DNA from: a virus
Taxonomy: Duplodnaviria > Heunggongvirae > Uroviricota > Caudoviricetes
Strand: one strand, 5' to 3'
Length of the DNA stretch: 37,872 nt
IMG/VR virus record: IMGVR_UViG_2563366845_000004
Span: 1-37,872 of that record
Shown: positions 1,139 to 23,080 of the stretch, piece by piece
Position numbering within the stretch: the first letter of the stretch is position 1
Layout: each line of letters begins with the position of its first letter
Notes under the pieces: generated by a model
Databases searched by the model: none
Seen by the model: the letters and a program-made list of their open reading frames with translations, nothing else
What the model was told of the DNA's origin: nothing
Made by a program: the position numbers and the translations under genes

Positions 1139-2128
1139 TTACTCCTGTGCTTTTTCAGCGGTACTTGGCTTTAGTTTTTCTTTGGTTGAATCCCATAAAG
1201 ATTGGATTCCCGGAGGGAGTTCTGTTTTGTCAGAAAATGCAGAGTTACCAGACATATTCCAGTCTTTAAAGACTAACACAGCATCTTCTTTTGTTGACGT
1301 GGAACCATAAATTTGCAGGAATACTTGCCCAAACATTAGTGCATGTCTTCTATCTTTTCTCAAAATTGATTCATGGGTATATTTTTTAGAGTTTCCAAGG
1401 CAAATATATGCTAGCCAAGAAAGAATGGAAATACCAATTAAACCACGTGTGAAAAAATAAAATAGCTCAAAGCCTTTAACATTGTTGAAGTCAATTGTGG
1501 CGTAGAGTGTATAAAATGATGCACATACAGCAAGTAGCCCGAAAATGCAGCCAGTAAAAGCCCATACTTGCGACATTTTAATGAAATATAAGTCATCTGA
1601 ACTTAGTTCACTTTTAACGCTATCGACATATCCTGGTATTTTCTCATCAATCCTTTCTTGTTGTACTCGGCTTTGTAATTCGCTGTTAGATGCTTCAAGT
1701 TGCTTTATTCTAGATACGGCTTGCTCAATAATTGCTTCTTTTTCAGAATTTAGTTTTTCTAAATTTTCATTCCGAAGATGTAACGTAGCTTTGGACTCTT
1801 CAGCCTCCAATAAACGTTTGGTATATGATCGCATTATCTCTCGAAGATGTTTTTGTTCTTTTATTAATTCATCTATCTTGTTGTTTTCATTAATAAAAAT
1901 ATCTCCAACTTTATCGCTGTAGTTCATTTTTTCTTGCTGGGTTAATTTCCAGTAGTATTCTCTGAATTTATCAATTTCACCTTTTTTTAATAAGTCGATT
2001 AAGTAGGCGCGCTCATTTTCATTAAATTTATGCGGATTTTCATTTAAAATATTATAAAGATCTTTCCATTCGCAATTAACTTTTTCAACATAATCGATGT
2101 TTTCATTTTTTTTATTTTCAGAATTCAT
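1139..2128 (-). CDS. Hypothetical coiled-coil / multi-pass membrane protein (lysogeny-operon moron; candidate superinfection exclusion or abortive-infection protein)
   Basis: ORF 1139..2206; probable start ATG at 2128 (MNSENKK...) with AGGAA RBS, 10 nt after the repressor stop codon. K/E-rich heptad-like N-terminal region, then three hydrophobic helices (e.g. VWAFTGCIFGLLAVCASFYTLY, LIGISILSWLAYICLG). Strongly AT-rich compared with neighbours. Confidence 0.6.
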   Translation of the reverse strand: MNSENKKNENIDYVEKVNCEWKDLYNILNENPHKFNENERAYLIDLLKKGEIDKFREYYWKLTQQEKMNYSDKVGDIFINENNKIDELIKEQKHLREIMRSYTKRLLEAEESKATLHLRNENLEKLNSEKEAIIEQAVSRIKQLEASNSELQSRVQQERIDEKIPGYVDSVKSELSSDDLYFIKMSQVWAFTGCIFGLLAVCASFYTLYATIDFNNVKGFELFYFFTRGLIGISILSWLAYICLGNSKKYTHESILRKDRRHALMFGQVFLQIYGSTSTKEDAVLVFKDWNMSGNSAFSDKTELPPGIQSLWDSTKEKLKPSTAEKAQE

Positions 2129-2138
2129 GTATGTTCCT

Positions 2139-3077
2139 TTAAATTTCCTTTGAAAAAACGCAACAACATTTTGCGATGGTTGTAATGTCTTCAAGCTTAC
2201 AAACAAAATCAGTTGTATCTGATGTGATTTTTACTTTTCCAACTGGAATTCTTGTTAATTTTCTTAAACTTACTTTACCTTCAATCTCAATCAACCAACT
2301 ACCATCTGAAACATCATCATATTCTGTATCTGCAATAAAGGTTTTTCCTTCTGCGGTAACTCCAATCGGTTTTTTCAATCCGGAAGGTATAAGCGTCTTG
2401 TCAAATGCTAAGTAGCCTTCATCATGTAATTTACCGTCAATGATTGTTTGGTGTTTAAGTTGGGCTACAGAGCTGGAATTATCGAAAAATTTGGGGCCAT
2501 TGCCGTTTGTGAGCCAGAGTAATGAAGCTCCTGTTTCAAGAGCGCATTGAATGATCCAATCGCTAGGAAACGTGTCTCGTAAGTACCTGTTTGCTACAGT
2601 GCTTTTTGAAACCTGCAAATGGTTTGCTAGGGCTTGTCGGGTGCTAAAGCCGTAGGCTGCGACTAAGCGATCAATTGCCGCCTTCCCTCCTTTATTAGGA
2701 TTTATGCTGGTCTCGATTGGGAACTTTTGGACTGTTGAGTTAGTTCTATCCGGGTCATCAGATTTGGTATGGGCTAAACGTTCATCATTTAATAAAACTG
2801 AGGGTGATTCACAGCTGATTCCTGATGCCAACCAGTCGATAGATGCGCCGGTCTCTATACTGCAAATTATCACCCAGTCAGCAGGAAATGTGTCACGAGC
2901 ATACCTGTTAGCCATCGTGCTTTGTGAGATACCCAGATGATTGCAAAATGCTTGCCGCGAAGTAAAACCATACGCAACAAGTATACGCTCAATTACTTTC
3001 TGTCCCCCACGGTTTTGCATTATTGAAGTTTTTAGACTCTCGCTAACATGGCGAAATGTGTTTTTTTGAGTTGACAT
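2139..3077 (-). CDS. cI: 186 CI-like immunity repressor with tandemly duplicated N-terminal HTH domain
   Basis: 312 aa; two consecutive copies of the CI N-terminal domain (…ERILVAYGFTSRQAFCNHLGISQSTMANRYARDTFPADW…ETGASIDWL… and …DRLVAAYGFSTRQALANHLQVSKSTVANRYLRDTFPSDW…ETGASLLWL…), then a C-terminal region resembling the 186 CI C-terminal domain (SDGSWLIEIEGKVSLRKLT). Divergent from the apl-like gene. Confidence 0.7.
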   Translation of the reverse strand: MSTQKNTFRHVSESLKTSIMQNRGGQKVIERILVAYGFTSRQAFCNHLGISQSTMANRYARDTFPADWVIICSIETGASIDWLASGISCESPSVLLNDERLAHTKSDDPDRTNSTVQKFPIETSINPNKGGKAAIDRLVAAYGFSTRQALANHLQVSKSTVANRYLRDTFPSDWIIQCALETGASLLWLTNGNGPKFFDNSSSVAQLKHQTIIDGKLHDEGYLAFDKTLIPSGLKKPIGVTAEGKTFIADTEYDDVSDGSWLIEIEGKVSLRKLTRIPVGKVKITSDTTDFVCKLEDITTIAKCCCVFSKEI

Positions 3078-3419: not shown

Positions 3420-3929
3420 ATGTTTGATTACCAAGTTTCCAAACATCCACATTTTGATGAAGCCTGTCGTGCATTCGCACTGCGCCACAACCTGGTGCAA
3501 CTGGCAGAACGTGCAGGCATGAATGTGCAGATTCTGCGGAACAAGCTGAACCCAGCTCAACCTCATTTATTAACCGCACCAGATATCTGGCTACTTACCG
3601 ATCTGACTGAAGATTCAACGCTGGTAGACGGTTTTCTGGCACAGATTCATTGTCTGCCATGTGTACCGATTAATGAGGTGGCAAAAGAGAAACTGCCACA
3701 TTACGTCATGAGTGCAACCGCAGAGATCGGGCGTGTTGCTGCAGGTGCGGTATCTGGCGATGTAAAAACCAGTGCAGGTCGTCGTGATGCTATCAGCAGC
3801 ATTAACTCTGTAACACGACTGATGGCGTTGGCTGCTGTTTCATTGCAGGCCCGTTTACAGGCTAACCCTGCGATGGCGAGTGCAGTTGATACCGTGACTG
3901 GCCTCGGTGCTTCATTCGGTTTGCTGTGA
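3420..3929 (+). CDS. cII: Phage regulatory protein CII (186 CII-like)
   Basis: ORF 3366..3929; start at [10 protein letters not shown] gives 169 aa, which I recall as the 186 CII length; positioned directly after apl as in 186. Confidence 0.65.
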
Positions 3930-3936
3930 GGTACTT

Positions 3937-4233
3937 ATGCTGACGAAAGAACCATCATTTGCATCGCTGCTGGTAAAGCAAAGCCCGGCAATGCACTACG
4001 GTCACGGCTGGATCATGGGTGAGGATGGAAAACGCTGGCATCCATGTCATTCACAAGATGAATTGCTGTCTGAATTGACCACGAGGAAACGGAGAAAGTC
4101 AAAATGTATGCAGCGGAAGGTGAAGTGGTTTATCAGTTTCGTTACAGAGGGGAGAGTTATTCAGTACCTGAAGATGATTTGCTCTGTTGTTATCCGTCGT
4201 TGTCGGGCGATGGCAGTTACTTTTTCACGCTAA
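3937..4233 (+). CDS. Hypothetical early protein (reading frame uncertain in its 3' part)
   Basis: ORF 3907..4233 with plausible start at MLTKEP; the last ~40 codons overlap the next gene in another frame and look low-complexity. Confidence 0.3.
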   Translation: MLTKEPSFASLLVKQSPAMHYGHGWIMGEDGKRWHPCHSQDELLSELTTRKRRKSKCMQRKVKWFISFVTEGRVIQYLKMICSVVIRRCRAMAVTFSR

Positions 4234-4328
4234 AAGATGGGACGTTTTTACGGGGAGAGCAGGTTAAAGAGACGATACGAAAAAATGTATCTCCTCTTGA
4301 ACGTTACCGTAATAACAAACAACGATAG
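4104..4328 (+). CDS. Hypothetical early protein
   Basis: 74 aa, GGAG RBS 9 nt upstream of ATG; overlaps the previous ORF by about 130 nt. Confidence 0.5.
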   Translation: MYAAEGEVVYQFRYRGESYSVPEDDLLCCYPSLSGDGSYFFTLKDGTFLRGEQVKETIRKNVSPLERYRNNKQR

Positions 4329-4350
4329 TTGCGTTTTGGGGATATGAATT

Positions 4351-4692
4351 ATGGCAATTAATGGCGCTGCGGCGACTGTTCCATTAAGCCCCGGTGAACG
4401 CCTGAATGGACTTAATCACATTGCGGAGCTAAGGGCGAAAGTTTTTGGCCTGAATATTGAGTCAGAGCTTGAGCGGTTTATTAAAGATATGCGTGATCCA
4501 CGGGATATCAATAACGAACAAAATAAACGGGCACTGGCTGCTATATTCTTTATGGCAAAAATTCCAGCTGAACGTCATAGCATCAGCATTAATGAGCTGA
4601 CCACTGACGAAAAGCGGGAGTTGATTAAAGCAATGAATCATTTTCGTGCAGTGGTGAGCTTATTTCCCAGACGGCTAACCATGCCGAATTAA
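4351..4692 (+). CDS. Hypothetical early protein
   Basis: 113 aa, GGGGA RBS, same orientation within the early operon. Confidence 0.55.
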   Translation: MAINGAAATVPLSPGERLNGLNHIAELRAKVFGLNIESELERFIKDMRDPRDINNEQNKRALAAIFFMAKIPAERHSISINELTTDEKRELIKAMNHFRAVVSLFPRRLTMPN

Positions 4693-4759
4693 CCAACTAA
4701 TGAAATTAATGGCGTAAACCCGCCGGGTATCCCTTTATCTAAATTCAGGAGAATTGATT

Positions 4760-4993
4760 ATGCGTAATATTGAAACCCTCACGACTAAAACCGGACCGGA
4801 TGATGCAGGGCTTAATATTTTACTGACAGAGGCTCGTCTGGAAGAACGCCGGGCAAGGGCTGAAGCAATGGCAGCTCGCCTTGATAGCCTGGCGTGTCAT
4901 ATCACATCCCGCCAGCTAAACCACGTCGAAGCAGCAGAACTACTGCGTGTAACTGCTGAAGCAATCCAGAACGAAGCGCAGGAGATCCACTAA
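4760..4993 (+). CDS. Hypothetical early protein
   Basis: ORF 4754..4993; ATG at 4760 preceded by AGGAGA; its stop overlaps the next start (TAATG). Confidence 0.5.
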   Translation: MRNIETLTTKTGPDDAGLNILLTEARLEERRARAEAMAARLDSLACHITSRQLNHVEAAELLRVTAEAIQNEAQEIH

Positions 4994-5220
4994 TGGCTGA
5001 TGCAATGGATCTCGTACAGCAGCGCGTTGAAGAAGAACTCCAGCGCCATATCCGTGCTGCCCGTGCCAAAACGCCGGGCGTGTCCCGCGTGCTTTGCATT
5101 GAGTGTGAAGCGCCAATTCCGCCAGCACGCCGCCGCGCCATTCCAGGTGTGCAGCTTTGCATTACCTGTCAGGAAATCGCAGAGCTGAAAGGCAAACATT
5201 ACAACGGAGGTGCTGTATGA
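4993..5220 (+). CDS. TraR/DksA-family C4 zinc-finger protein
   Basis: 75 aa with CIECEAPIPPARRRAIPGVQLCITCQ (CxxC-N17-CxxC), typical of phage TraR/DksA-like proteins; ATGA overlap with the downstream gene. Confidence 0.7.
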   Translation: MADAMDLVQQRVEEELQRHIRAARAKTPGVSRVLCIECEAPIPPARRRAIPGVQLCITCQEIAELKGKHYNGGAV

Positions 5221-6074
5221 GCACCATCCTGAAATGGGCGGGAAATAAAACCGCAATTATGTCCGAACTGAAAAAACACCTTCCTGCTGGCCCGCGACTG
5301 GTTGAACCTTTCGCGGGTTCCTGTGCTGTGATGATGGCGACGGATTATCCAAGCTATCTGGTTGCGGATATTAATCCTGATTTAATCAACCTCTATAAAA
5401 AGGTTGCCGCTGATTGTGAATCGTTTATATCTCGCGCCAGAGTTTTATTTAAGGAAGCAAACAGGGAGGTGGCTTATTACAACATAAGGCAGGAGTTTAA
5501 TTACTCAACTGAAATTACTGATTTCATGAAAGCGGTATATTTCCTGTATCTCAATCGTCACGGTTACCGTGGTTTATGTCGCTATAACAAGAGCGGGCAT
5601 TTCAACATTCCCTACGGTAATTATAAAAATCCGTATTTCCCTGAAAAAGAAATTCGCGCATTTGCAGAAAAAGCCCAGCGGGCAACGTTTATCTGCGCCA
5701 GCTTTGATGAAACGCTGGCGATGTTGAAGGCGGGGGATGTGGTGTATTGCGATCCGCCGTATGACGGCACGTTTTCCGGTTATCACACTGACGGCTTCAC
5801 TGAAGATGACCATTATCACCTGGCATCCGTTCTTGAACATCGGTCATCAGAAGGACATCCGGTCATTGTTTCTAACAGTGACACATCCCTGATCCGTTCG
5901 CTGTATCGCAATTTTACTCACCACTACATCAAGGCAAAACGCAGCATCGGCGTAGCAGCTGGTGAGAGTAAATCTGCAACAGAAATCATCGCTGTTTCTG
6001 GGGCGCGCTGCTGGGTGGGATTTGATCCTTCGCGTGGCGTGGATAGTTCTGCCGTGTACGGAGTGCGTGCATGA
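5217..6074 (+). CDS. dam: DNA adenine methyltransferase (Dam-type N6-adenine MTase, orphan)
   Basis: N-terminal ILKWAGNK...PFAGSCAV (AdoMet-binding) and catalytic DPPY motif ([10 protein letters not shown]); start is an internal ATG of ORF 5157..6074. Confidence 0.85.
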
Positions 6075-8485
6075 GCCATGCTGATATGAACAACTGCAGC
6101 GGCTTTAACGAGGCCGCCGCAGCATTCTCATGGAACAGCCCGAAAAAGTCTATTAACCCTTATCTGGACCCGGCGGAAGTTGCGCCGGTTTCTGCGCTTT
6201 CAAACCTGATCACTCTGTACGCTGTCGATAACGAGCAGGAACAACTGCGTCGCGAGGCACTGAGTGATCAGGTCTGGGAGCGTTATTTCTTTAATGAATC
6301 CCGTGATCCTGTCCACCGCGAAATGGAGCAGGATAAGCTCATTAGCCGGGCAAAGCTGGCGCATGAGCAGCAGCGTTTTAATCCAGATATGGTCATTCTG
6401 GCGGACGTCAATGCCCAGCCTTCCCATATCAGCAAGCCGCTGATGCAACGTATTGAATACTTCAGCAGCCTGGGCAGGCCAAAGGCTTATTCCCGCTATT
6501 TGCGTGAGACGATTAAGCCATGTCTGGAACGACTGGAGCATGTACGCGACTGTCAGCTATCCACTTCTTTTCGCTTTATGGCAAGCCATGAAGGGCTGGA
6601 CGGCCTGCTGATCCTGCCTGAAATGAGTCAGGATCAGGTGAAGCGCCTGTCTACCCTTGTCGCCGCGCATATGAGCATGTGCCTTGATGCAGCTTGTGGT
6701 GATTTGTATGCCACCGATGACGTTAAGCCAGAAGAAATCCGCAAGACATGGGAAAAGGTGGCAGCGGAAACCCTGCGTCTGGATGTTATCCCGCCTGCGT
6801 TTGAGCAACTCCGTCGGAAAAGAAACCGCCGTAAACCCGTGCCTTATGAACTCATTCCGGGTTCGCTGGCGCGTATGTTATGCGCCGACTGGTGGTATCG
6901 GAAATTATGGAAGATGCGTTGCGAATGGCGGGAAGAGCAGTTGCGTGCTGTTTGCCTGGTCAGCAAAAAAGCATCTCCCTATGTCAGCTATGAAGCCGTG
7001 ATGCATAAACGTGAGCAGCGCCGTAAGTCGCTGGAGTTTTTCCGTTCTCATGAACTGGTGAACGAAGACGGCGACACGCTGGATATGGAAGACGTGGTAA
7101 ACGCCAGCAGCAGCAACCCTGCGCATCGCCGCAATGAGATGATGGCCTGTGTTAAAGGTCTGGAGCTTATCGCGGAAATGCGCGGTGACTGCGCCGTTTT
7201 CTACACCATCACCTGTCCGTCACGTTTCCATTCCACGCTAAATAACGGCAGGCCCAACCCGACCTGGACAAATGCGACGGTAAGACAAAGCAGTGATTAT
7301 CTGGTCGGTATGTTTGCTGCATTTCGTAAGGCGATGCACAAAGCCGGATTGCGCTGGTATGGCGTGCGGGTGGCTGAGCCGCATCATGACGGTACAGTTC
7401 ACTGGCACCTGTTGTGTTTTATGCGCAAAAAAGATCGCCGCGCCATTACTGCTTTGTTGCGTAAGTTTGCCATTCGTGAAGACCGCGAGGAGCTGGGTAA
7501 TAACACGGGACCACGCTTTAAGTCTGAGCTGATAAACCCGCGCAAAGGTACGCCAACAAGCTACATCGCGAAATACATCAGTAAGAACATTGACGGGCGT
7601 GGTCTGGCTGGCGAGATCAGCAAGGAAACGGGTAAATCCCTGCGTGATAACGCTGAATACGTTAATGCCTGGGCGTCTCTGCATCGTGTTCAGCAATTCC
7701 GCTTCTTTGGCATTCCGGGGCGTCAGGCTTACCGTGAACTGCGATTGCTGGCTGGTCAGGCGGCAAGGCAACAGGGGGACAAAAAAGCAGGTGCGCCGGT
7801 ACTGGATAACCCGCGTCTTGATGCCATCCTGGCTGCTGCTGATGCTGGTTGTTTTGCCACCTACATCATGAAGCAGGGCGGCGTACTGGTTCCCCGCAAA
7901 TATCACCTCATCAGAACCGCTTATGAAATCAACGAAGAGCCGACCGCCTATGGCGATCACGGCATTCGTATTTATGGCATCTGGTCACCCATTGCAGAGG
8001 GCAAGATCTGCACTCATGCGGTGAAGTGGAAAATGGTTCGTAAGGCCGTTGACATTCAGGAGGCGGCAGCCGACCAGGGCGCTTGCGCCCCTTGGACTCG
8101 TGGCAATAACTGTCCCCTTGCTGAAAATTTGTACCAACAAGGGAAAGACAAATCAGCTGATGGAGATACCAGAACGGATATCACCCGTATGGATGACAAG
8201 GAGTTGCACGATTACCTGCACAGTATGAGCAAAAAAGAGCGCCGGGAACTGGCAGCAAGGTTACGCCTGGTGAAACCGAAACGGCGTAAAGACTACAAAC
8301 AGCGAATTACAGATCATCAGCGACAGCAGCTCGTGTATGAACTGAAGTCCAGGGGATTTGATGGCAGCGAGAAAGAGGTCGATTTACTCCTTCGCGGCGG
8401 CAGTATTCCATCAGGAGCAGGCCTGCGTATCTTCTATCGGAACCAGCGTTTGCAGGAAGATGATAAGTGGCGGGATCTGTATTAA
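6071..8485 (+). CDS. Replication initiation endonuclease (P2 gpA-like rolling-circle initiator)
   Basis: 804 aa; HUH-type motif (VHWHLLCF) and downstream tyrosine-containing region (YIAKYISKN); size and position as P2 gene A. Confidence 0.85.
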
Positions 8486-8577
8486 TTACGCGGGTTAACA
8501 ATTCGTGCTCTTAATAATACCAGGCATATCAGGCTGATGAACGTAAAAAAACGTTTTACATCAGTAAGATTATTATA

Positions 8578-8597
8578 TACTGTAAATATAAACAGTG
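8578..8597. promoter_or_regulatory. LexA (SOS) box TACTGTAAATATAAACAGTG upstream of the Tum/DinI-like genes
   Basis: CTGT-N8-ACAG with an AT-rich spacer matches the E. coli LexA consensus; a candidate -35 TTTACA lies at 8555..8560 and an extra ACAGTAT half-site at 8607..8613. Confidence 0.7.
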
Positions 8598-8638
8598 GTT
8601 ATGTGTACAGTATTGCTTGTGGTGTCATAGGAGGAAAA

Positions 8639-8827
8639 ATGCAGGACTATTTTTTGGAGTCTTTGAAGCTCCAGCGCATTGATTTTTTTCTTAAGCTTGT
8701 AGCGGCTAGTGAGTGTAGTGATGAAGAGAAGGGGCTGGCTCTGCAGTGGGTTTCTGAATTGACTGATGAACTCATGGCAAAAATCAGAAGCCACGAATAC
8801 AACCGCTCAATGGATGTCATCAGCTGA
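8639..8827 (+). CDS. Small SOS-regulated protein (possible Tum-like antirepressor N-terminal part)
   Basis: 62 aa, strong AGGAGG RBS, immediately downstream of the LexA box and followed 10 nt later by a DinI-like ORF. Confidence 0.5.
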   Translation: MQDYFLESLKLQRIDFFLKLVAASECSDEEKGLALQWVSELTDELMAKIRSHEYNRSMDVIS

Positions 8828-8837
8828 GGTGACTTTT

Positions 8838-9071
8838 ATGCGCATTGAAATAATGATCGATAAAGAGCAGAAAATTAGCCAGTCTACCCTGGACGCCCTT
8901 GAATCCGAGCTTTACCGCAGTCTGCGCCCCCTGTATCCCAAAACGGTAATTCGTATCCGCAAAGGTAGCTCTAACGGTGTGGAACTGACCGGACTGCAAC
9001 TGGACGAAGAAAGAAAACAAGTGATGAAAATTATGCAGAAGGTGTGGGAAGACGACAGCTGGCTGCATTAA
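8838..9071 (+). CDS. DinI-family protein (DinI/Tum C-terminal-like)
   Basis: 77 aa beginning MRIEIMIDKE... and ending ...QKVWEDDSWLH, matching the DinI fold signature; GAGGTGA RBS. Confidence 0.75.
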   Translation: MRIEIMIDKEQKISQSTLDALESELYRSLRPLYPKTVIRIRKGSSNGVELTGLQLDEERKQVMKIMQKVWEDDSWLH

Positions 9072-9079
9072 GAAATGTT

Positions 9080-9118
9080 GCCCCCAGGAGGATTCATTCT
9101 GATGGGGGCTGGTTTTGG
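9080..9118 (+). terminator. Putative terminator after the DinI-like gene
   Basis: GCCCCCA...TGGGGGC 7-bp GC stem with a 16-nt loop, followed by TGGTTTTGG. Confidence 0.35.
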
Positions 9119-9683
9119 CAACGAGTGAAACGAGGCGTAAGGTGGGGGGCATTTTGATAAGTGCTCGTTCGCTTTGTGCCAGAGGCGGAAGTTGTTACAG
9201 CTGTTGTCTTACCCAATGGGGAGCATCTCGGAAATTTTCGACCCAACGCTGCGAACGATAAAGAAATAGTGGCCGCTTGAGTTTAGGCCTAAACTGTTTC
9301 TTGTTAGAAGAAACGCTTAAGTCGGCATGCCGTGCTATCCGCTAGGGTAGGCCGGAGCTTGGCTAGTGCTTGCAAGTATGCTACAAACACATTAGCACAT
9401 ATAACATGTATTTTGCAGTACTCCTAGAGTATAATAAGGCCAGTAGTATTGAAAAAAGGGTTGTTAAGTAGACGCACAATAATTCTACAGTTCTTGGATT
9501 TGATGAATAGATGCTAAAATGTATGCTTCAATTATTCAATCTATAAGAGGGAGCAGAGAAAAAATAAGGTGGCAGGAGGTGTTAGACCACTAAATTTAAA
9601 TCGTGAGATAAATATGGAGCCATAAACCTATGGAGGGAATGGCAAAAGCTAAAATTATAGACTAAAAATGGACGGTGTGAATA

Positions 9684-9956
9684 ATGGCGATTTTTGATAA
9701 ACAGCAGGCCATAAAAAAACTAACAGAAAAAAATGCTTTATTACCATGCCATAGATGTGGGAATAAGTCATTTGGAATTGTTGATGGAGTGACTTCCTAT
9801 TCATTAGTTAATGATCCAAATATGATAGGTAGTGTGATTGTTGGAGGAGCCTCTCTGCCTGTGTTACATGTTTTTTGTGAAAACTGTGGAGCCTTAACTT
9901 CTCATTCTTTGGGCATTCTAGAACTATTACCAAAGGAAGACGAAAATGGGGGGTAG
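9684..9956 (+). CDS. Small zinc-ribbon protein (CxxC...CxxC), first gene of a two-gene cargo cassette
   Basis: 90 aa with CHRCGN ... CENCG; AT-rich; overlaps the downstream gene by 11 nt (ATGGGGGGTAG). Confidence 0.5.
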   Translation: MAIFDKQQAIKKLTEKNALLPCHRCGNKSFGIVDGVTSYSLVNDPNMIGSVIVGGASLPVLHVFCENCGALTSHSLGILELLPKEDENGG

Positions 9957-10416
9957 TACTTTTAACTCTACGGTGAATGGTGAAAAATCTCCTGCAGTAA
10001 CACCCTCGCAAGTTATTATTAATGAGGACGGGGATTTTACTGATAAAATAGTTAGACAGACTAAAGTTGAAGTTATAGTTATTAGCGATGATAAGTTGCA
10101 TATAATACTGACGAATTGCCTTGGTAGAATAACAAGTTTAAATAAATGGACTACTCCGCTTGGTATCTTAGTTACGCTTGCAGTAACTATGTTAACAACA
10201 AATTTTAAGGAATTTATCCTTAGCGCACATGTCTGGGAAGCTATGTTCTGGATTATTACAATACTCAATGTGGTATGGCTAATTAAGTCCATCCCTTACA
10301 GGCACATATGGATTGAGTTTCTTCATTTCTTTGGCAGAGGAGAACAGATGAAAAGTATTCGAGATGTTAGGCATATAATAGAAAAAATAAAGAGTGGTGA
10401 TACTGGAATTAATTGA
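9946..10416 (+). CDS. Small membrane protein, second gene of the cassette
   Basis: 156 aa with two hydrophobic helices (LGILVTLAVTMLTT; AMFWIITILNVVWLI); AGGAAG RBS; translationally coupled to the zinc-ribbon gene. Confidence 0.5.
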   Translation: MGGSTFNSTVNGEKSPAVTPSQVIINEDGDFTDKIVRQTKVEVIVISDDKLHIILTNCLGRITSLNKWTTPLGILVTLAVTMLTTNFKEFILSAHVWEAMFWIITILNVVWLIKSIPYRHIWIEFLHFFGRGEQMKSIRDVRHIIEKIKSGDTGIN

Positions 10417-10807
10417 TCTATATGGCGAACTAAAACAAATTTATGTCATATCATAGCCCTCTCAGTAGGAGGGCAATATTTGCTAGGATCACAAACTGAC
10501 ATGAAGCCCCTATTTTCTTTCGGACTCTTTTGCCACAAGTTCCATAGTGTCTTCGTATGTTCCCTCTTGCTGGAAAAAAATCATGCCGGAATTCTGTTTC
10601 TGAATGGCGCAGGATTTTGGGTAAGGCTCAATCAGTTGTGAGAATAATTGCCAACTTTCGATCCTCGCTCGTTGCGGACTTTCTTCTTTGTAAAACCGTA
10701 TGTTTCGTTTTTCAAGTGGTCATTCAGATACGGATTTGCACTTCCTTTGGCAGTACATGACTATGCCGCATGAGATCGCATGATCGTTTGAGGATCGTTT
10801 TTGCTAA

Positions 10808-10835
10808 GGTCCGCCAGAACTGGCGGGCTTTTGCG
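10808..10835 (+). terminator. Rho-independent terminator-like hairpin
   Basis: CCGCCA-GAAC-TGGCGG stem-loop followed by GCTTTTGCG. Confidence 0.45.
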
Positions 10836-10877
10836 TAGATCATGCACCTGCATGAAAACTACTACATAAAGCGGGCA

Positions 10878-10896
10878 GGCGTGGCGGGGATACGAG
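10878..10896. other. Candidate cos (cohesive end) site
   Basis: GGCGTGGCGGGGATACGAG followed by GCGCGC; the first 13 nt match the P2/186 cos ends as I remember them (GGCG[A/T]GGCGGGGAAAGCA). Confidence 0.35.
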
Positions 10897-11107
10897 CGCG
10901 CGCAACGGGGTTAAATGGCGAAAATCCGGCGCAATCTCCGGTACGTTGACAACTTCTGTCTAAATTGCAGGTAAAAGGAGAGCACTCTGCAGAATGCTGC
11001 TGAGCAGCTAATAGCGCAGGTGTTGCCGATGCGAACAGAACTTGCTGAAAAACTCTGTGAGCAGTAACTTGTGCTCAAGTACCTAATAAATTCGATAAGG
11101 ACTGAGT

Positions 11108-12547
11108 ATGACGCCAAAAGTTTTTATATCATATAGTTGGAGTAGCCCAGCTCATAAGGAAAGAGTTAAAGCAATAGCTGATAGACTTTTGAGTGATGGA
11201 GTGGATGTTGTCATTGACATATATGATTTGAAGGAGGGCAATGATAAAAACGCATTCATGGAAAAAATGATTGTTGATAAAAGTATCACCAATGTGCTTG
11301 TGATGTGTGATTCAGTTTACGCAAAAAAAGCTGATAACAAACAAAGTGGGGTTGGCACAGAATCCCAGATCATCTCTCAACAAGTCTACACAAAAGTCGA
11401 ACAATCAAAATTTATACCTATTGTTTGTGAATTTGATGAGAATTCAGAACCTTGTCTTCCTGTTTTTATGAGTTCGCTAATATGGATTGACCTTTCAACA
11501 CCAGAAAAAGAAAATCAAAATTGGGAACGGTTAGTAAGGCTGCTTAATGGAAAACCAGCAGATATAAAACCTAAGCTTGGAAAAAGACCAAGTTATTTAG
11601 ATAGTGGGCAATATGATCCGGTGAGTGAACCACACGCAAAATTTAATAGCTTGAAACAAGCTGTTTTGCAAAATAGGGCAGGTGTTAGTTATTATCGGCG
11701 TGATTTCGTTGATTCAGTAGTCAAGTACCTTGACGGGATGAGAATCCGAGCTCGCCCAGAGCAAAATGATTTACAAAGCATGGGTAGGAAAATAATTAGC
11801 GACGTTGCTGCCATGAAGCCTATCAGGGATTATGTGTGTGAATGGATAACTCTTGAGGCAGAGTTTACGATGCAGGATGAATTTTCAACAGAACTAGTAA
11901 AGTTCTTTGAAAAAGTTCTGTTACTAACCGAAGCTCCTAGCGATGTCAGTTCATGGCAATTAAACTGGTATGATGCACAAAAGGTATTTGCATACGAAAT
12001 TTTCTTATATTCAGTTGCTATATTGATTAGATTAGAGAAGTTTCAATTAGTACGTGCGATTTTATCTGCCAGATTCCTTTCTGGTGATAGGCAGTTACCA
12101 CCGGAACATAGACTCGTGTCAATTAGCGCTTTCTTAGCTGATTCTGAAACGCTACAGGCAGGTTTTGAAGAAGATATAAGGTATTACTCTCCAGTTGCAG
12201 AGCTAATTAAAAGAAATGCAGATAGGGAAGATATTACCTTTTCTGATCTTATGCAGGCTGATGTGCTAGTTCTTTTTTATTCATTTTGTAATGATGGTGT
12301 CTATTGGTATCCATGCACTATTCATTATGCGAGTTATAATTATAGACCTGAACTATTTTTAAGAGCGACACAGCATAAGTATTTTGAATATTTAGCAATG
12401 ATTGCCGGGATAGCGTCAGCGCAAGAGATCAAATTGAAGGTTAAGGCCGGCGCTCAGAGTATGCATAATTCAGGGGTTAGATATGGACGTATGGGGACTG
12501 GTTTTGAAAGTATGATGAACGCCGATAACCTTGATTTTATAAAATGA
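11108..12547 (+). CDS. SEFIR/TIR-domain protein with an uncharacterised C-terminal domain (candidate single-gene antiphage effector)
   Basis: 479 aa; N-terminus KVFISYSWSSPAHKERVKAIADRLLSDGVDVVIDIYDL...NVLVMCDSVY fits the SEFIR/TIR (STIR) signature; moderately AT-rich; convergent with the portal gene. Confidence 0.65.
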   Translation: MTPKVFISYSWSSPAHKERVKAIADRLLSDGVDVVIDIYDLKEGNDKNAFMEKMIVDKSITNVLVMCDSVYAKKADNKQSGVGTESQIISQQVYTKVEQSKFIPIVCEFDENSEPCLPVFMSSLIWIDLSTPEKENQNWERLVRLLNGKPADIKPKLGKRPSYLDSGQYDPVSEPHAKFNSLKQAVLQNRAGVSYYRRDFVDSVVKYLDGMRIRARPEQNDLQSMGRKIISDVAAMKPIRDYVCEWITLEAEFTMQDEFSTELVKFFEKVLLLTEAPSDVSSWQLNWYDAQKVFAYEIFLYSVAILIRLEKFQLVRAILSARFLSGDRQLPPEHRLVSISAFLADSETLQAGFEEDIRYYSPVAELIKRNADREDITFSDLMQADVLVLFYSFCNDGVYWYPCTIHYASYNYRPELFLRATQHKYFEYLAMIAGIASAQEIKLKVKAGAQSMHNSGVRYGRMGTGFESMMNADNLDFIK

Positions 12548-12550
12548 TGC

Positions 12551-12572
12551 AAGCCGCTCTCAAGAGCGGCTT
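12551..12572. terminator. Bidirectional terminator hairpin between the SEFIR gene and the portal gene
   Basis: AAGCCGCTCT-CA-AGAGCGGCTT perfect inverted repeat in the 29-bp gap between two convergent stop codons. Confidence 0.5.
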
Positions 12573-12576
12573 AGTA

Positions 12577-13614
12577 TTAATATGTCCCTAAAACATATGG
12601 TGCGAATGAAATAATTTCATCTCCGGCCCAATCATTCAGTTCCTGCAGTCGTTTCTGCAATGGCATCAGCTCATTGCGGACAAAGACGAGGCTCGCTTTC
12701 TCTACATCCCCAAATCCCCCAACATTATTAGGCATTATCCCCATCATTTGTGGCGGTACACGGTGCGCAGCCATCATGTCATCACGGCTCACGTTCTTGA
12801 TATTCAGAAACTCATCCTTCGCTGCGACTTCTGACAACGGGATAATCTGAAGTCCGTCCTTTTTGCCGTTAGGCGAGTACATAAACAGATTGCGGAAGTT
12901 GCCAGGGCCTTTGGCGCTTTTCATCGCATTGCGGAGGTTGTTCACATCCTCCTGGTTCTGCGCGGCATCGGTCATGTACATGATGAAGCCTGCATGACTG
13001 CCGTTAATGTAATACTTGCGGCGGAACAGCGTGGCGGACTCGTTGAGCAGGGCGGACGGAATGGCAGAAAGATAACCGGGCAGGCCGTAGATCTCCTGGT
13101 TGATGTCCGGCTCCATCAGATGAAAAATGCTGCCTTTCGTGAACTGATACGGCTGGGTTGTCATACCGTATTGCACAAACCAGTAGGTATCCAGGTCTAA
13201 CCCGCGTCGGGTGTATTTTGCCAGAGCAGGCTCAAGGGCTATAACTTCACCGAAGCAGTTCGTGCGTTTCTCCAGGTAGGCGTTACCAAATACCAGATAG
13301 TCCTGCACAAAACGTGAAAAAGCCTGCTGGCTGAGCAGCGGATGAGGGATATAGGTACTGGTCAGAATGTTGCACTTTACTGCAATCGGGGAACTGTGAT
13401 GCACGGCGGCGCGGAAGGTGCGCGCCAGTCCGTCAAAGCTGACGGGCGGCTCATACCAACGGTCCATCTGTACGCATTCCACATAGTCCAGCAGTTCACG
13501 GCGGTCCAGAACAGGAACGGGATCGCCGAAGCTGAATGCTTCGGCTGTAGTTTGACTTTTAAGCTGGATCTGTTTCGTCGCCGCAGCTCGGTTCTTCTTA
13601 CTCTTTCCCATCAA
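12577..13614 (-). CDS. Portal protein (P2 gpQ-like)
   Basis: 345 aa, P2 Q size; adjacent to and co-oriented with the large terminase, in P2 order. Confidence 0.85.
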   Translation of the reverse strand: MMGKSKKNRAAATKQIQLKSQTTAEAFSFGDPVPVLDRRELLDYVECVQMDRWYEPPVSFDGLARTFRAAVHHSSPIAVKCNILTSTYIPHPLLSQQAFSRFVQDYLVFGNAYLEKRTNCFGEVIALEPALAKYTRRGLDLDTYWFVQYGMTTQPYQFTKGSIFHLMEPDINQEIYGLPGYLSAIPSALLNESATLFRRKYYINGSHAGFIMYMTDAAQNQEDVNNLRNAMKSAKGPGNFRNLFMYSPNGKKDGLQIIPLSEVAAKDEFLNIKNVSRDDMMAAHRVPPQMMGIMPNNVGGFGDVEKASLVFVRNELMPLQKRLQELNDWAGDEIISFAPYVLGTY

Positions 13615-15377
13615 AAAATCTCCACAATATTGCTGGTATTGGCGGATTCGCCCTGCAGCGGTTCGTTAAACAGTGCGTGCATCGTTGCCCATGCCAGATC
13701 GGCGTGGCTGGCTTCTTCGCTGCGGCTGGCTTCATAGGTCGGGCGGTTGCCACTGGCGGTGGTGGCGCGACGGATTGCCATAAATGACTGCGCAATGTCG
13801 GTATGTCCGGCGTCAAACTCCAGACGGCGGTGGCTGATAATGTCGTAGGCCTTGAGTACCAGGGCGTTTTTAACGTTGGGGTTGTAGACAAACTCCCGGA
13901 CGGCAGGAAAGAACGCTTTCACGTTCTCGTAAACCCCGTGGCCAACGCCGGTTGAGTCGATGCCGATGTAGGTCACGTTGTACTGCTCGGTCAGTTTTTT
14001 GATTGCGTCAGCCTGGGCGCGGAAGTCCATCCCGCGCCACTGGTGACGCTCAAGAATGCGGAACTTACCGCCCGGCACGGCTGGCGGTGCCACCACCACG
14101 CATCCGGCGCTGTCGCCGTTTTGCGTACCTTTTGCCGGGTCATAACCGATCCACACTTCGCGCCAGCCAAATGGGCGCAGGGCCAGTGCATGAAAGTCGG
14201 TCCAGACTTCCCAGCTGTCCACCATGCACGCCTGCAGCTCGCTGAGCGGGAACACGGACGCGAGATCGTCCACAAACTCGCACATCAGCAGGTTCTGGTA
14301 TTCGTCCGGGCTGTACTCCATGCGCAGCTGGTCGAGGTCGAATAGGTTACAGCCGCCGCGCACCGCATCTTCCACGGTGACTATCTGGCGGTATTGCCCG
14401 TCTGCACACAGCAGGCCGGGAGCCAGATTGCTGTGGGACAGGTCGATGTCCACCTTATCGGCTTTGTTGCGCCCACGGTTGAACAGCGCACCGGACCAGA
14501 ACGGATAAGCACTGTGGGTCAGGCTGGATGGTGTGGAAAAATAGGTCTGTCGCCATTTCTTGTGAATAGCCATACCGGAAGCCACTTTGCGCAGCTCCTG
14601 GAATTTCGGTATCCAGAAATATTCATCCAGATACAGGTTGCCGTGGTAACTCTGGGCCGTGCGGGCATTGGTGCCGAGGAAATACAGTGTGGCCCCGTTG
14701 GGAAGCACCATCGGATCGCCTTTCAGCTCCACCTCCACTTCTTTGGCAAAGTCGATGATGTACTGTTTAAAAACGTGGGCCTGTGCCTTACTGGCGGAAA
14801 GGAAAATCTGGTTACGTCCGGTTAGCAGGGCGTCAATCAGGGCTTCACGGGCAAAGTAAAAGGTCGCGCCGATCTGGCGTGACTTCAGCAGGTTGCGGAT
14901 GCGGTTGGTTTTTCCGGCTTCCCACCAGTGGCGCTGATAGTTGAACATAGAGGAATGGAAGATTTCTTCCAGCTTCTCAATTTGTTCATCGGTGAAAATA
15001 TTCTTTTCCGGCTGGCGGCGTGGGCCTTTGTTGCGGTTGGCGACGTTAGGGTTTAAGTCGGCTTCGTTGCCGCCATTGTTAAACTTGCCGATCCGCGCGT
15101 GGCGCTCAGACTGGCGCGCCAGCAGGTCAATCTCTTTGAAATCTTTCCCTTCTTTGTGCTCCTTCATGATGAGCTGACAGTAGCGTGCGGCGGTGGTGAG
15201 CTGCATCTGATCCAGCGGACCATAGTCACCCCACTTGTCGCGTTTTTTCCAGCTGTGAACGGTTGCAACTTTCTCGCCCAGCATTTCAGCAATGCGGGCT
15301 ACGCGGTATCCCTGAAAGTACAGCAGCATGGCCTGCCGACGGGGATCGAGATCTGCGGGTGTCAGTGTGGTGTTCAT
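13611..15377 (-). CDS. Terminase large (ATPase) subunit (P2 gpP-like)
   Basis: 588 aa; Walker A-like LKSRQIGATFYFA region; overlaps the portal gene start; divergent from the capsid operon. Confidence 0.85.
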   Translation of the reverse strand: MNTTLTPADLDPRRQAMLLYFQGYRVARIAEMLGEKVATVHSWKKRDKWGDYGPLDQMQLTTAARYCQLIMKEHKEGKDFKEIDLLARQSERHARIGKFNNGGNEADLNPNVANRNKGPRRQPEKNIFTDEQIEKLEEIFHSSMFNYQRHWWEAGKTNRIRNLLKSRQIGATFYFAREALIDALLTGRNQIFLSASKAQAHVFKQYIIDFAKEVEVELKGDPMVLPNGATLYFLGTNARTAQSYHGNLYLDEYFWIPKFQELRKVASGMAIHKKWRQTYFSTPSSLTHSAYPFWSGALFNRGRNKADKVDIDLSHSNLAPGLLCADGQYRQIVTVEDAVRGGCNLFDLDQLRMEYSPDEYQNLLMCEFVDDLASVFPLSELQACMVDSWEVWTDFHALALRPFGWREVWIGYDPAKGTQNGDSAGCVVVAPPAVPGGKFRILERHQWRGMDFRAQADAIKKLTEQYNVTYIGIDSTGVGHGVYENVKAFFPAVREFVYNPNVKNALVLKAYDIISHRRLEFDAGHTDIAQSFMAIRRATTASGNRPTYEASRSEEASHADLAWATMHALFNEPLQGESANTSNIVEIF

Positions 15378-20976: not shown

Positions 20977-21858
20977 TTATTTCATTTCGTGTGGCATATT
21001 TATGGCTTTGATTTTTTCGTGGTAATGATTAAACTCAATATGAGTATTGGTAAAATTAGATTCAAATGTATTCATTAAATTGGAATATAGTGATTCATAT
21101 GATAAGGATACTTTTTTTCCATTTTTTTCTGCAGTTGTGCTAATGTACCTATGTACTGCAGAAAAAAGAAAATGACCTCTAAGCCACTTTCTGTATTCTA
21201 TCGATTTTGATTTGAAAGATGAATCGATGTTATCTGGTTCCACACCTAATTTTTCAATAATGGTGTTTTTGTAATCCGTGATTTTTTGCTCGCAAATTTC
21301 ATTTGATTTTCTAGATTTCATGAAACGATCTGCACTGTCACCAATAACTGAAATGCCTTTTCTATAAATATGATTGTATATATCAAGTTTTATTAGGGGT
21401 TCCATTTTGGTATAAAAGTCTTCTGTCCAAGAATCGATGTTGACATCGTTCATTATCTTTTGCGGTAATTTCCCGAGAGTTTTTATTGCCTTATATATGC
21501 CTGTTTTGTCAATAAATGTGTTTTCGATGGAGTGCCCATAAGTTTTTACAATACGACTATCAGCGTTTTCTTCATTTTCAAATGTAGTGAAGTCTGCATC
21601 ACATGCAATAATAATTTGAAGATCTTCATCAGTAACTCTATCAATATATTTTTTTAATTCTTCACAGCCGCCAACATCTTTGATTTCAACCTTTAATGAA
21701 CTAGCTTTATTAAAGATGATTTCCCAAAAGCAAATATCATCTGGGCCTTCAACATAAACCATGGCTTCAGCTTGGTAAAATAAATTCATTACATTTTCTG
21801 CTTCGGCAGAATAATGGAAATCATCCATGAACCAATTTCTCCATATCAAAGATTGCAT
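20977..21858 (-). CDS. Toprim/DUF4435-like nuclease partner (AriB-like) of a split OLD-family system
   Basis: 293 aa, AT-rich; N-terminal VYVEGPDDICFW (Toprim E-G..D) and IIACDADFT (DxD-like); start may be M1 (21858) or M11 (21828), overlapping or abutting the upstream ATPase gene. Confidence 0.55.
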   Translation of the reverse strand: MQSLIWRNWFMDDFHYSAEAENVMNLFYQAEAMVYVEGPDDICFWEIIFNKASSLKVEIKDVGGCEELKKYIDRVTDEDLQIIIACDADFTTFENEENADSRIVKTYGHSIENTFIDKTGIYKAIKTLGKLPQKIMNDVNIDSWTEDFYTKMEPLIKLDIYNHIYRKGISVIGDSADRFMKSRKSNEICEQKITDYKNTIIEKLGVEPDNIDSSFKSKSIEYRKWLRGHFLFSAVHRYISTTAEKNGKKVSLSYESLYSNLMNTFESNFTNTHIEFNHYHEKIKAINMPHEMK

Positions 21859-23080
21859 TTCGATATTTAGAGGCCACTTCTGGTGAATGCGTAGCGGCGA
21901 TAATTTGTGCGTTAGGGTTAAGTTGTTTGATTGCAGGTATTATTTTTCGTTGCCATGCAATATGTAGTGATAATTCTGGTTCATCAGTAAGATAGATGAA
22001 AGGTTTTTTTTGCTGTAGCAAAGTTTCAATAAAAAGAATTAATAGCTGTTTTTCTCCAGACGATAAATTACTATGGCTAATCGGCCCATGCTCGTTTTCT
22101 ATTACTAGCTCACCGGAGATAAAATTAAATTTTTTATCGGTTATGAACTCATGTAATGTTTCTAAAAATAGATTTATAGGAAGAAATATGTTTTTTATTT
22201 CCTCCTCGGATTTTAAAGACATCTTTATAATTCTTTGCGTCTTTCGTAATGCCTCAAATGATCTGTAATCTACATTTAAAATATTTCTGTTGTTTTTTTC
22301 TGCAAGTCGTAGTTCTTCAAATGTATTGGCAATAGATTCAACGTGAAAGTTAATCTTCTTTCTGACATCGCTATCAAAAGCTCCAAGTTGAGAATATGCA
22401 GCTATTAAATTTCTACGTTCTTTTTCTTTATCAAAAGAAAAGTTAAATGTGTCATCGATACCATCTTCTTTACTATAAAGAATAGAAGCAAGAACCTCTT
22501 TCTGTAATTTTGCAGAAACATCACGAGCTCTTTGTGATAAGTAAAGCTGATATTTTGTTAGATTCTGCAATAATTGTTCTAATCGGTAATCAACGGGGTT
22601 GATTAATTTTGAGCCATATTTGTCTCTGATTTCAAAATCTTCACCGCTTCTAAGTCGGTAAACTGATAGAGAAGATAAAGCAACTAATTTATCTAGCTCT
22701 AACTTAAGTTTTTCAACGTCTTCCTGATATTTTCTCCTCATATATATAGGCAGCCTACGATCTTCAAAGGATCTGATAATATATTTCTTTCTAGAAATTG
22801 TATATTCAAACGTAGGCAAAGCCTTAGTTATGTCAAATTTACTCACAACTTTTATTGTTTTAGTTTTGCTTCCTTCTTTTATTTTTATTGTTACATTATC
22901 AAAACTATTCTCATTTAACGATTCAAGTTCTAATGCCAGAACTGAGTGAAGAATATTCATAAAGGTTGTTTTACCGGTCCCATTTCGACCAATAATAATA
23001 TTTACATCTTCATTAAATGAACATGATGCATTTAGTCTTCCCCAAAAACCTTCAATCTTGACACTAGATAATCTAAACAT
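21821..23080 (-). CDS. OLD/AAA_21-type ABC ATPase (AriA-like)
   Basis: 419 aa; Walker A GRNGTGKTT, ABC signature LSSGEKQ, Walker B FIYLTDEPELSLH, H-loop ATHSPE; AAGGA RBS; AT-rich. Confidence 0.7.
   Translation of the reverse strand: MFRLSSVKIEGFWGRLNASCSFNEDVNIIIGRNGTGKTTFMNILHSVLALELESLNENSFDNVTIKIKEGSKTKTIKVVSKFDITKALPTFEYTISRKKYIIRSFEDRRLPIYMRRKYQEDVEKLKLELDKLVALSSLSVYRLRSGEDFEIRDKYGSKLINPVDYRLEQLLQNLTKYQLYLSQRARDVSAKLQKEVLASILYSKEDGIDDTFNFSFDKEKERRNLIAAYSQLGAFDSDVRKKINFHVESIANTFEELRLAEKNNRNILNVDYRSFEALRKTQRIIKMSLKSEEEIKNIFLPINLFLETLHEFITDKKFNFISGELVIENEHGPISHSNLSSGEKQLLILFIETLLQQKKPFIYLTDEPELSLHIAWQRKIIPAIKQLNPNAQIIAATHSPEVASKYRNAIFDMEKLVHG

Follow-up and report, generated by a model that had tools for sequence, protein, structure and literature searches.

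In bacteriophage P2, the exclusion genes tin and old form expendable lysogenic-conversion cargo, located between the gene A/DinI region and the cohesive-end (cos) site. In the lambda prophage, the two-gene module RexA/RexB pairs a soluble protein with a small inner-membrane protein that it is proposed to gate and that depolarises the cell upon superinfection, causing abortive infection; RexB has four transmembrane (TM) helices, and RexA is a protein of 279 amino acids (aa) with no zinc ribbon. The A-to-Q hotspot of P2 has been experimentally shown to hold anti-phage systems (Rousset et al. 2022, PMC9122126), and 19% of P2-like elements lack a recognisable defence gene in it (preprint 10.64898/2026.02.27.708500). 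In the sister hotspot of P4, most randomly chosen loci without assigned function protect against phages (preprint 10.64898/2026.02.27.708500). The stretch of DNA analysed here (the window, 37,872 nucleotides (nt), IMG/VR record IMGVR_UViG_2563366845_000004) is a P2-like prophage that carries two small genes at the tin/old position, called Z (zinc-ribbon protein) and B (predicted membrane protein) below. The Z-B pair is a self-contained, horizontally mobile unit, carried by prophages, phages, small plasmids and chromosomal islands. Judging from the sequences, the chance is about even that the two genes act in abortive infection or in the manner of a toxin-antitoxin pair, where a cytoplasmic zinc-ribbon regulator would gate a membrane-permeabilising effector.

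The pair follows replication gene A (6071-8485) and a DinI-family gene (8766-9071; Pfam DinI, 4.5e-22), and the portal (12577-13614) and terminase (13611-15377) genes lie beyond cos on the minus strand. An AT-rich stretch is found between DinI and the portal gene, with a guanine-plus-cytosine (GC) content of 0.35-0.39 against 0.50 overall, and the pair itself has 0.356 against 0.497 for the window. An AGGAAG ribosome-binding site ahead of the B start codon is located within Z, and the end of Z overlaps the start of B (Table 1), so that the two genes are translationally coupled. Most of what the original prediction had said of the locus held: the two AT-rich open reading frames (ORFs) with their 11-nt overlap are exactly as claimed, the CxxC...CxxC ribbon of the first product is formed by C22/C25 and C65/C68, which are invariant in homologues, and the two TM helices of the second correspond to two hydrophobic segments on the Kyte-Doolittle scale. 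The position between DinI and cos was also right. The cos site, then a candidate, is real, and the pair stands on its tin/old side, because the sequence aligns with the annotated cosL of P2 (NC_001895, 1-19) at 14 of 19 positions and is likewise followed by GCGCGC. Z and B are real genes, since both are annotated in RefSeq (hypothetical proteins WP_001595558 and WP_001595559) and since the ratio of nonsynonymous to synonymous substitution rates, computed against the Proteus, Serratia and second Escherichia coli variants described below, is 0.08-0.24 for Z and 0.14-0.36 for B. Both are under purifying selection.

Evidence for a two-gene unit comes from its recurrence. A metagenome scan with a pattern derived from distant B homologues (30-45% mutual identity) gave 20 loci, in which ORFs were called locally and assigned with Z and B profiles. 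Sixteen of these loci include 250 nt or more of DNA ahead of B, and in 14 of them a Z homologue directly precedes it; the junction, where readable in eight distant pairs, ranges from a 14-nt overlap to a 3-nt gap. The exceptions are locus L041 (532-1032), where a different CxxC...CxxC ribbon is fused at the N-terminus of B, and locus L043 (2583-2966), where an unrelated 127-aa partner precedes B. The neighbours of the L041 gene are also CxxC-rich, and the fusion joins zinc ribbons with the two-TM (2TM) module. The reciprocal scan of IMG/VR with the Z pattern yielded 16 viral contigs: a B homologue follows Z in nine of them, one contig ends directly after Z, and in the remaining six something other than B, or nothing, comes after Z. 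The pairwise identities of Z and of B are correlated (r = 0.81 over 18 pairs), also when the close enterobacterial clade is excluded (r = 0.68, Mantel p ~2e-4, for 14 non-enterobacterial pairs); such a correlation is expected if Z and B are inherited and diverge together, and is no proof of physical interaction. A larger conserved operon was considered and rejected, as BLASTP among the flanking proteins of different loci gave no matches; because the flanks share no similarity, the pair itself is the conserved unit. The original prediction had been made from a single instance, and what it described is a widespread family.

The unit moves between very different replicons. The DNA of the cassette is also present in a chromosome of Proteus faecis, a chromosome of Serratia marcescens and a Logan contig (Proteus loci L008 and L009, Serratia locus L010), with no P2 genes around it. 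In Arthrobacter phage Shoya, gp27 and gp28 are the pair, sited between the lysis enzymes and the immunity/integrase region. The start of gp27 has been annotated too far downstream, giving a protein of 61 aa that lacks the first CxxC; the full ORF encodes 102 aa with both CxxC knuckles and overlaps gp28, the B homologue, by 4 nt. A mobilizable Col(Ye4449) plasmid of Klebsiella pneumoniae, only 4,648 bp long, carries a 61%-identical pair directly after rep as its main cargo, the one other non-backbone gene being of the NadS family.

Carriage on a plasmid of this size would suit a selfish addiction module, with Z as a labile antitoxin and B as a membrane toxin that stabilise a prophage or plasmid and have no anti-phage role. 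The layout agrees with it: Z and B are adjacent, small, co-transcribed genes conserved as a mobile pair, as is general for toxin-antitoxin systems, and the small upstream gene overlaps the downstream one. The prominence of the pair on so small a plasmid, behind rep and beside a NadS-family gene, points the same way, as do the existence of orphan Z copies, which are common for antitoxins, and the exchange of partners on both sides. However, the pair is consistently found in hotspots whose contents have tested as anti-phage, beside known defence genes, and a P2 prophage has no obvious need of such a module. Addiction as the sole function is thus rather unlikely in our estimation, and it overlaps the abortive-infection proposal in any case, because many toxin-antitoxin pairs prove to be defence systems.

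Each of the two genes also occurs without the other. A 44%-identical Z stands alone in Spirochaetia metagenome-assembled genomes, next to a GNAT gene. One metagenomic locus (L040) contains a canonical Z-B pair, a prophage-repressor-like gene and then a second Z paralogue (3906-4193), located 26 nt upstream of a gene (4219-6144) for a 641-aa OLD-family nuclease (PADLOC Old, 1e-76; Pfam AAA_15 and OLD-like TOPRIM). Z may therefore be a swappable regulator for unrelated effectors. A viral scan with the L040 Z paralogue found nothing. Conversely, B homologues follow an unrelated beta-rich partner of 116-117 aa in two genomes (L013, 3658-4008; L014, 3658-4011), one of them a Chromohalobacter with DUF4238 and SieB genes nearby; the two partners are visibly homologous to each other. 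Together with the L043 protein they constitute a second class of partners, of 116-127 aa and free of cysteine, which overlap B as Z does; a Pfam search with the L014 and L043 partners gave no match. Other small proteins accompany B in prophage and phage contigs. Such exchange on both sides is typical of immune systems and toxin-antitoxin networks.

The SieB gene beside a B relative brings superinfection exclusion into consideration: from the inner membrane, B would keep the DNA of incoming phages out or block a different envelope step while the cell survives, with Z assisting or regulating it. A prophage-encoded pair with a small, predicted inner-membrane protein, placed where P2 has tin and old, is compatible with such a role. 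We know of no requirement for a cytoplasmic zinc-ribbon partner in SieA, SieB, Imm, Sp or Ltp, however; that Z is also associated with OLD, a cytoplasmic nuclease, is more in keeping with a regulator of effectors than with an accessory of the envelope, and the pair has non-prophage locations as well, in chromosomes and on a small plasmid. Exclusion without killing is for these reasons an improbable function of the pair, a little more so than addiction.

Z begins with an N-terminal helix; a PCxRCG knuckle, a beta segment and a CxxCG knuckle come next, and the conserved motif at the C-terminus is H-x-LG-x-L-x-L-L-P, the secondary structure being read from a low-confidence AlphaFold model. Its four cysteines (C22-x2-C25 and C65-x2-C68) are invariant in nine close and about 35 distant homologues. 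Pfam gave zinc-ribbon matches below threshold only, and nothing significant was found in NCBIfam. The best Pfam match, Lar_restr_allev (PF14354), reaches 19.5 bits (E 0.0012) where the cut-off is 28.6, so that membership of Z in this family is not supported, and it spans the zinc knuckles alone (model positions 2-34 of 58); in PHROG, Z matches phrog_599, which is Lar-like restriction alleviation, at E 0.12. These best names would suggest a Lar-like anti-restriction or anti-defence factor, the pair serving to evade host immunity. Besides the sub-threshold score confined to the knuckles, this would leave the obligate membrane partner without a role, and the cargo of the P2 hotspot has, as far as tested, been defensive; such a factor is very improbable here.

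B starts with a disordered, variable N-terminus, followed by a conserved strand-helix segment (VIVISDDKLHIILTNCL), TM1, a short loop, TM2 and two short C-terminal helices. The hydrophobic segments, at ~68-92 (TM1, Thr-rich) and ~94-117 (TM2), have Kyte-Doolittle maxima of 1.48 and 1.72 over 19 residues. A helical hairpin at 71-92 and 94-115 is the best-scored part of an otherwise poor AlphaFold model. The charge distribution suggests an N-in/C-in topology with both ends in the cytoplasm. A word-indexed search found about a dozen enterobacterial clusters each for Z and B, and an exhaustive HMMER search with the B alignment extended the family of B to 1137 representatives of 50%-identity clusters at E<=1e-3 (174 at E<=1e-10), all aligning to ~32-117 of B, i.e., the conserved helix and the hairpin. 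Near-invariant positions in 150 of these representatives are D49, L55, W68, P71, F87, W97, F101 and W111, among which W68, F87, W97 and W111 make up an aromatic belt. The superfamily is large and unnamed and has no Pfam family: the 150 representatives returned no named Pfam family for the core, and PADLOC gave no family at E<=0.1 for ten members. In a few members, the protein is extended by additional domains at the C-terminus or fused to a double zinc ribbon. P0132, P0041, P0022, P0029 and other relatives of B carry, on the cytoplasmic side, a C-terminal PcrA/UvrD tudor, CarD/TRCF RID or DnaJ-like_C11_C domain; the first two are RNA polymerase-binding domains in other proteins.

Membership of B in the SLATT families was examined and rejected, as the Pfam and NCBIfam scans lent it no support: SLATT is absent from the top 25 Pfam families of the 150 members, and the sole trace is a match of one member to NCBIfam SLATT_4 at E 0.18. 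The predicted topology of B is also that of class II holins, and 6 of the 150 members weakly match Phage_holin_3_6 (best E 0.01). The pair could thus serve the cycle of its own carrier, in lysis timing (holin/antiholin-like) or in packaging near cos and terminase; the Shoya pair comes after the lysis enzymes, and several phage contigs have the pair or a relative beside terminase genes. A core function in P2-like phages is contradicted by its presence in only 12 of 5426 E. coli genomes, and plasmid and non-phage chromosomal sites do not agree with a role in the phage cycle either. The pair is never inside a same-strand lysis cassette; in the window its place is the hotspot, a long way from the lysis genes of P2, and B is accordingly not classed as a holin. 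We regard a function in the carrier's own cycle as quite unlikely.

As had been claimed from the sequence, neither gene matches a known defence family. PADLOC-DB v2.0.0, which covers known and candidate defence systems and whose use had been proposed with the original prediction, gave no family at E<=1 for Z or B, and Pfam and NCBIfam produced nothing significant for either. The sole PHROG match of B is phrog_32870 (4.3e-12), a family without assigned function. Profile searches of PDB sequences with the alignments of the pair gave nothing meaningful. No description of the pair was found in the literature, searched in full texts by accession and keyword and in the supplements of Rousset et al. 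2022. By these databases and this literature, Z and B are two undescribed families. In the same supplement (PMC9122126), a 98-aa protein labelled Methyltransf_13 precedes three membrane proteins in the hotspot of Aliivibrio wodanis AWOD1; with only 15 bits against the Z profile, it is a lead and not a match. The pair also recurs, as the proposed co-occurrence check brought out, in phages, a plasmid and chromosomes, including the P2 hotspot beside differing known systems. The original prediction of a candidate undescribed system is thus strengthened by the absence of a known family, by recurrence and by the location in a defence hotspot, while its layout of a small sensor plus a membrane effector is still conjectural.

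For an abortive-infection or toxin-antitoxin-like module, we infer that Z binds B, that B is toxic or pore-forming and that infection is the trigger. As a helical hairpin, B would insert into the inner membrane and keep its two ends on the cytoplasmic side. Soluble Z, kept in fixed proportion by translational coupling, would bind the cytoplasmic part of B and hold it inactive; the operon places the small putative regulator gene first and the membrane-protein gene second. Infection by another phage would then remove or alter Z, either through a phage product that binds it or, if Z is labile, through its depletion once host synthesis is shut off. The freed B would oligomerise and permeabilise or depolarise the membrane, and the cell would be halted before progeny are formed. 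Toxicity by membrane permeabilisation is suggested only by the size of B, its Thr-rich helix and its aromatic belt. A wider proposal, possible rather than probable, is that Z-B represents a previously unrecognised, phylogenetically broad abortive-infection family, with members as far apart as the P2-like prophages of enterobacteria and a phage of Arthrobacter. Z would then be a dedicated adaptor for sensing infection, and the effectors under its control would be interchangeable, in most cases the 2TM protein and sometimes OLD. With its more than 1000 clusters, the 2TM superfamily would constitute a new class of immune effectors that disrupt membranes.

Several observations weigh against the proposed module. 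Homology of Z or B to characterised defence, toxin or antitoxin proteins was not detectable in PADLOC, Pfam, NCBIfam, PHROG or PDB. Foldseek comparison of the Z and B models with PDB and BFVD found nothing under E ~0.9, and therefore no structural support. The AlphaFold2 models are weak (predicted local distance difference test scores of 54.7 for B, from 12 sequences, and 57.8 for Z, from 6) because they were built from shallow early alignments that predate the discovery of the deep family; given these poor scores and the empty Foldseek and PDB searches, structure speaks neither for nor against the proposal. The pair is rare, in E. coli (12 of 5426 complete genomes) as well as in phages, where Shoya is the sole carrier among 50,697 deposited records. 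Z occurs without B in the Spirochaetia genomes and in some viral contigs, and its presence on the 4.6-kb Col plasmid is as compatible with plasmid addiction as with defence. Finally, several metagenomic loci have housekeeping neighbours (Maf, UvrC, a PrmC-like methyltransferase).

Because of those housekeeping loci, the qualitative association of the pair with defence is only suggestive. In P2-like phages, the neighbours are bSEFIR, retron II-A/St85, 3HP and PDC-S39. Elsewhere, the pair adjoins a type II restriction-modification system (L038; restriction endonuclease, 5.3e-113) or a mad3-like ATPase (L032), or is near the OLD nuclease described above (L040). In qualitative terms, the pair thus has the known defence neighbours and hotspot locations generally looked for in a defence system.

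Table 1. Coordinates of the Z-B pair, its surroundings in the window and two copies elsewhere. Positions are those of the window unless another record is named.
Feature	Coordinates	Strand	Remarks
Gene Z	9684-9956	+	90 aa; cytoplasmic zinc-ribbon protein
Gene B	9946-10416	+	156 aa; inner-membrane protein (predicted)
Z stop/B start overlap	9946-9956	+	11 nt; translational coupling (ORF coordinates)
Mobile cassette extent	9171-10583		blastn of 8401-12700 against fetched loci; 75-83% identity
Conserved non-coding leader, putative promoter region	9270-9683	+	alignment
Terminator-like GC-rich hairpin with T-rich tail	10456-10474	+	40 nt past the B stop
cos cohesive-end sequence GGCGTGGCGGGGATACGAG	10878-10896	+	boundary marker, outside the module
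bSEFIR gene	11108-12547	+	479 aa; between cos and the portal gene
Shoya Z ORF	L062 3091-3399; MN908684 ~21380-21688		full ORF
Klebsiella plasmid pair	L063 (NZ_CP055165.1) 1600-2326		ORFs

The cassette that moves is longer than the two genes, since a leader of ~400 nt upstream of Z moves along with it. The leader contains a perfect TATAAT at 9430-9435 and is a putative promoter region; a consensus scan of the + strand revealed no strong sigma-70 promoter in the region. A segment of ~130 nt (~9520-9650) is missing in Serratia. An RNA hidden in the leader is unsupported, as an Rfam scan of 8800-11200 gave no match. At the upstream edge, a 39-aa ORF remnant (9161-9280, +) matches the C-terminal end of the gene called upstream of the Serratia copy. 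Downstream, the hairpin past B is likely the end of the Z-B transcript, to judge from its sequence; four terminator-like sites were found in the region where 1.4 are expected.

Just beyond cos lies a known defence gene that the original prediction did not include, bSEFIR. Its product belongs to this family, matching PADLOC PDLC03957 at 4.6e-104 over residues 2-475, and its N-terminal domain matches Pfam SEFIR (4.2e-15) and TIR_2 (6.4e-15). This membership is that of the neighbour and not of Z-B. Four complete E. coli genomes contain Z-B DNA that is 98-99.8% identical to that of the window; in the first, a retron St85/II-A takes the place of bSEFIR beyond cos, and in the second 3HP does (Hp1 1.2e-64, Hp2 1.7e-39, Hp3 1.1e-10). 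A second E. coli variant of the pair, with ~60% protein identity, occurs in eight genomes within P2-like elements, between cos (L003 ~5587-5605) and the portal gene, and there the tin/old side is occupied by the candidate system PDC-S39 (DUF7380). The cos site thus divides the P2 hotspot into two cargo slots: in the window, Z-B occupies the one towards DinI, and in the second lineage of E. coli the one towards the portal gene.

A TIR-type protein encoded 690 nt downstream of the pair, in the same hotspot and on the same strand, recalls the 2TM, 1TM and TIR genes of the P2-like phage AC1 (PMC9122126), and Z, B and the SEFIR/TIR gene could be read as one three-gene system. Such a system is extremely improbable. 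Both cos and the terminator-like hairpin intervene, near-identical Z-B copies stand beside retron II-A or 3HP instead of SEFIR, and the 479-aa protein fits the single-gene bSEFIR model over its full length. The AC1 comparison covered proteins 2 and 3 and, of protein 1, the first 44 residues; in these, hmmsearch with the Z and B profiles found no match and the best BLASTP E was 5.9, so that homology to Rst_2TM_1TM_TIR was rejected. The combination of Z-B and bSEFIR as one system was rejected too, the same pair being found beside retron II-A, 3HP and PDC-S39: with hairpin and cos in between and with varying neighbours, Z-B is independent of bSEFIR.

The window holds further AT-rich stretches. 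A second island (20977-23080, minus strand, GC ~0.31), amid late tail and baseplate genes, encodes a 419-aa AAA ATPase and a 293-aa DUF4435 protein (RefSeq names), which is the architecture of PARIS (AriA/AriB); of 5426 complete E. coli genomes, 18 carry this island. An AT-rich ORF of 355 aa (1139-2206, minus strand, GC 0.33), between the integrase (1-1053) and a repressor-like gene of 312 aa (2139-3077), may be another lysogenic-conversion gene. Inspection of its product by eye suggests a long region resembling a coiled coil, and two hydrophobic helices near the C-terminus.

Should Z-B prove to protect against phages, a compact system of ~730 bp, made of two uncharacterised families, joins the defence catalogue. 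A small zinc-ribbon protein would then be an exchangeable regulator for effectors as unrelated as a membrane hairpin and an OLD nuclease, and a role would be given to a superfamily of membrane proteins that lacks a Pfam family although it comprises over a thousand clusters at 50% identity. If it is merely a toxin-antitoxin pair, it would still provide a new membrane toxin with a zinc-ribbon antitoxin. Cultured carriers exist in the form of E. coli strains, Arthrobacter phage Shoya (gp27/gp28) and the 4.6-kb Klebsiella plasmid.

Compared with known systems, Z-B shares with tin and old their position and their expendable nature. Tin and Old, on the contrary, are single cytoplasmic proteins, and the PADLOC Old model matches the L040 neighbour but neither Z nor B. 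Proteins of the Lar family (PF14354) are, like Z, small, phage-encoded and equipped with two CxxC knuckles, which are all that the sub-threshold match covers. MqsA of MqsRA is also a small zinc-binding regulator in a tightly coupled two-gene operon carried by mobile elements; Z, however, has no helix-turn-helix and no NCBIfam or Pfam match to the YgiT/MqsA ribbon, and its partner is a membrane protein, not an RNase. Rst_2TM_1TM_TIR of phage AC1 (PMC9122126) occupies the same P2 hotspot, and its presumed effectors are small membrane proteins; Z-B, too, has a gene of the TIR type nearby in the window, whereas in most contexts it is without one. The resemblance to RexA/RexB lies in the general plan of a prophage module in which a soluble protein may gate a small protein of the inner membrane, although no PADLOC family matched Z or B. 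The 2TM effectors of the SLATT type, which act in CBASS, retrons and UG/Abi reverse transcriptase systems, are like B short two-helix proteins, thought to kill by disrupting membranes and joined in modular fashion to differing upstream components. Where those systems rely on a cyclase or a reverse transcriptase, the partner of B is a zinc ribbon of 90 aa.

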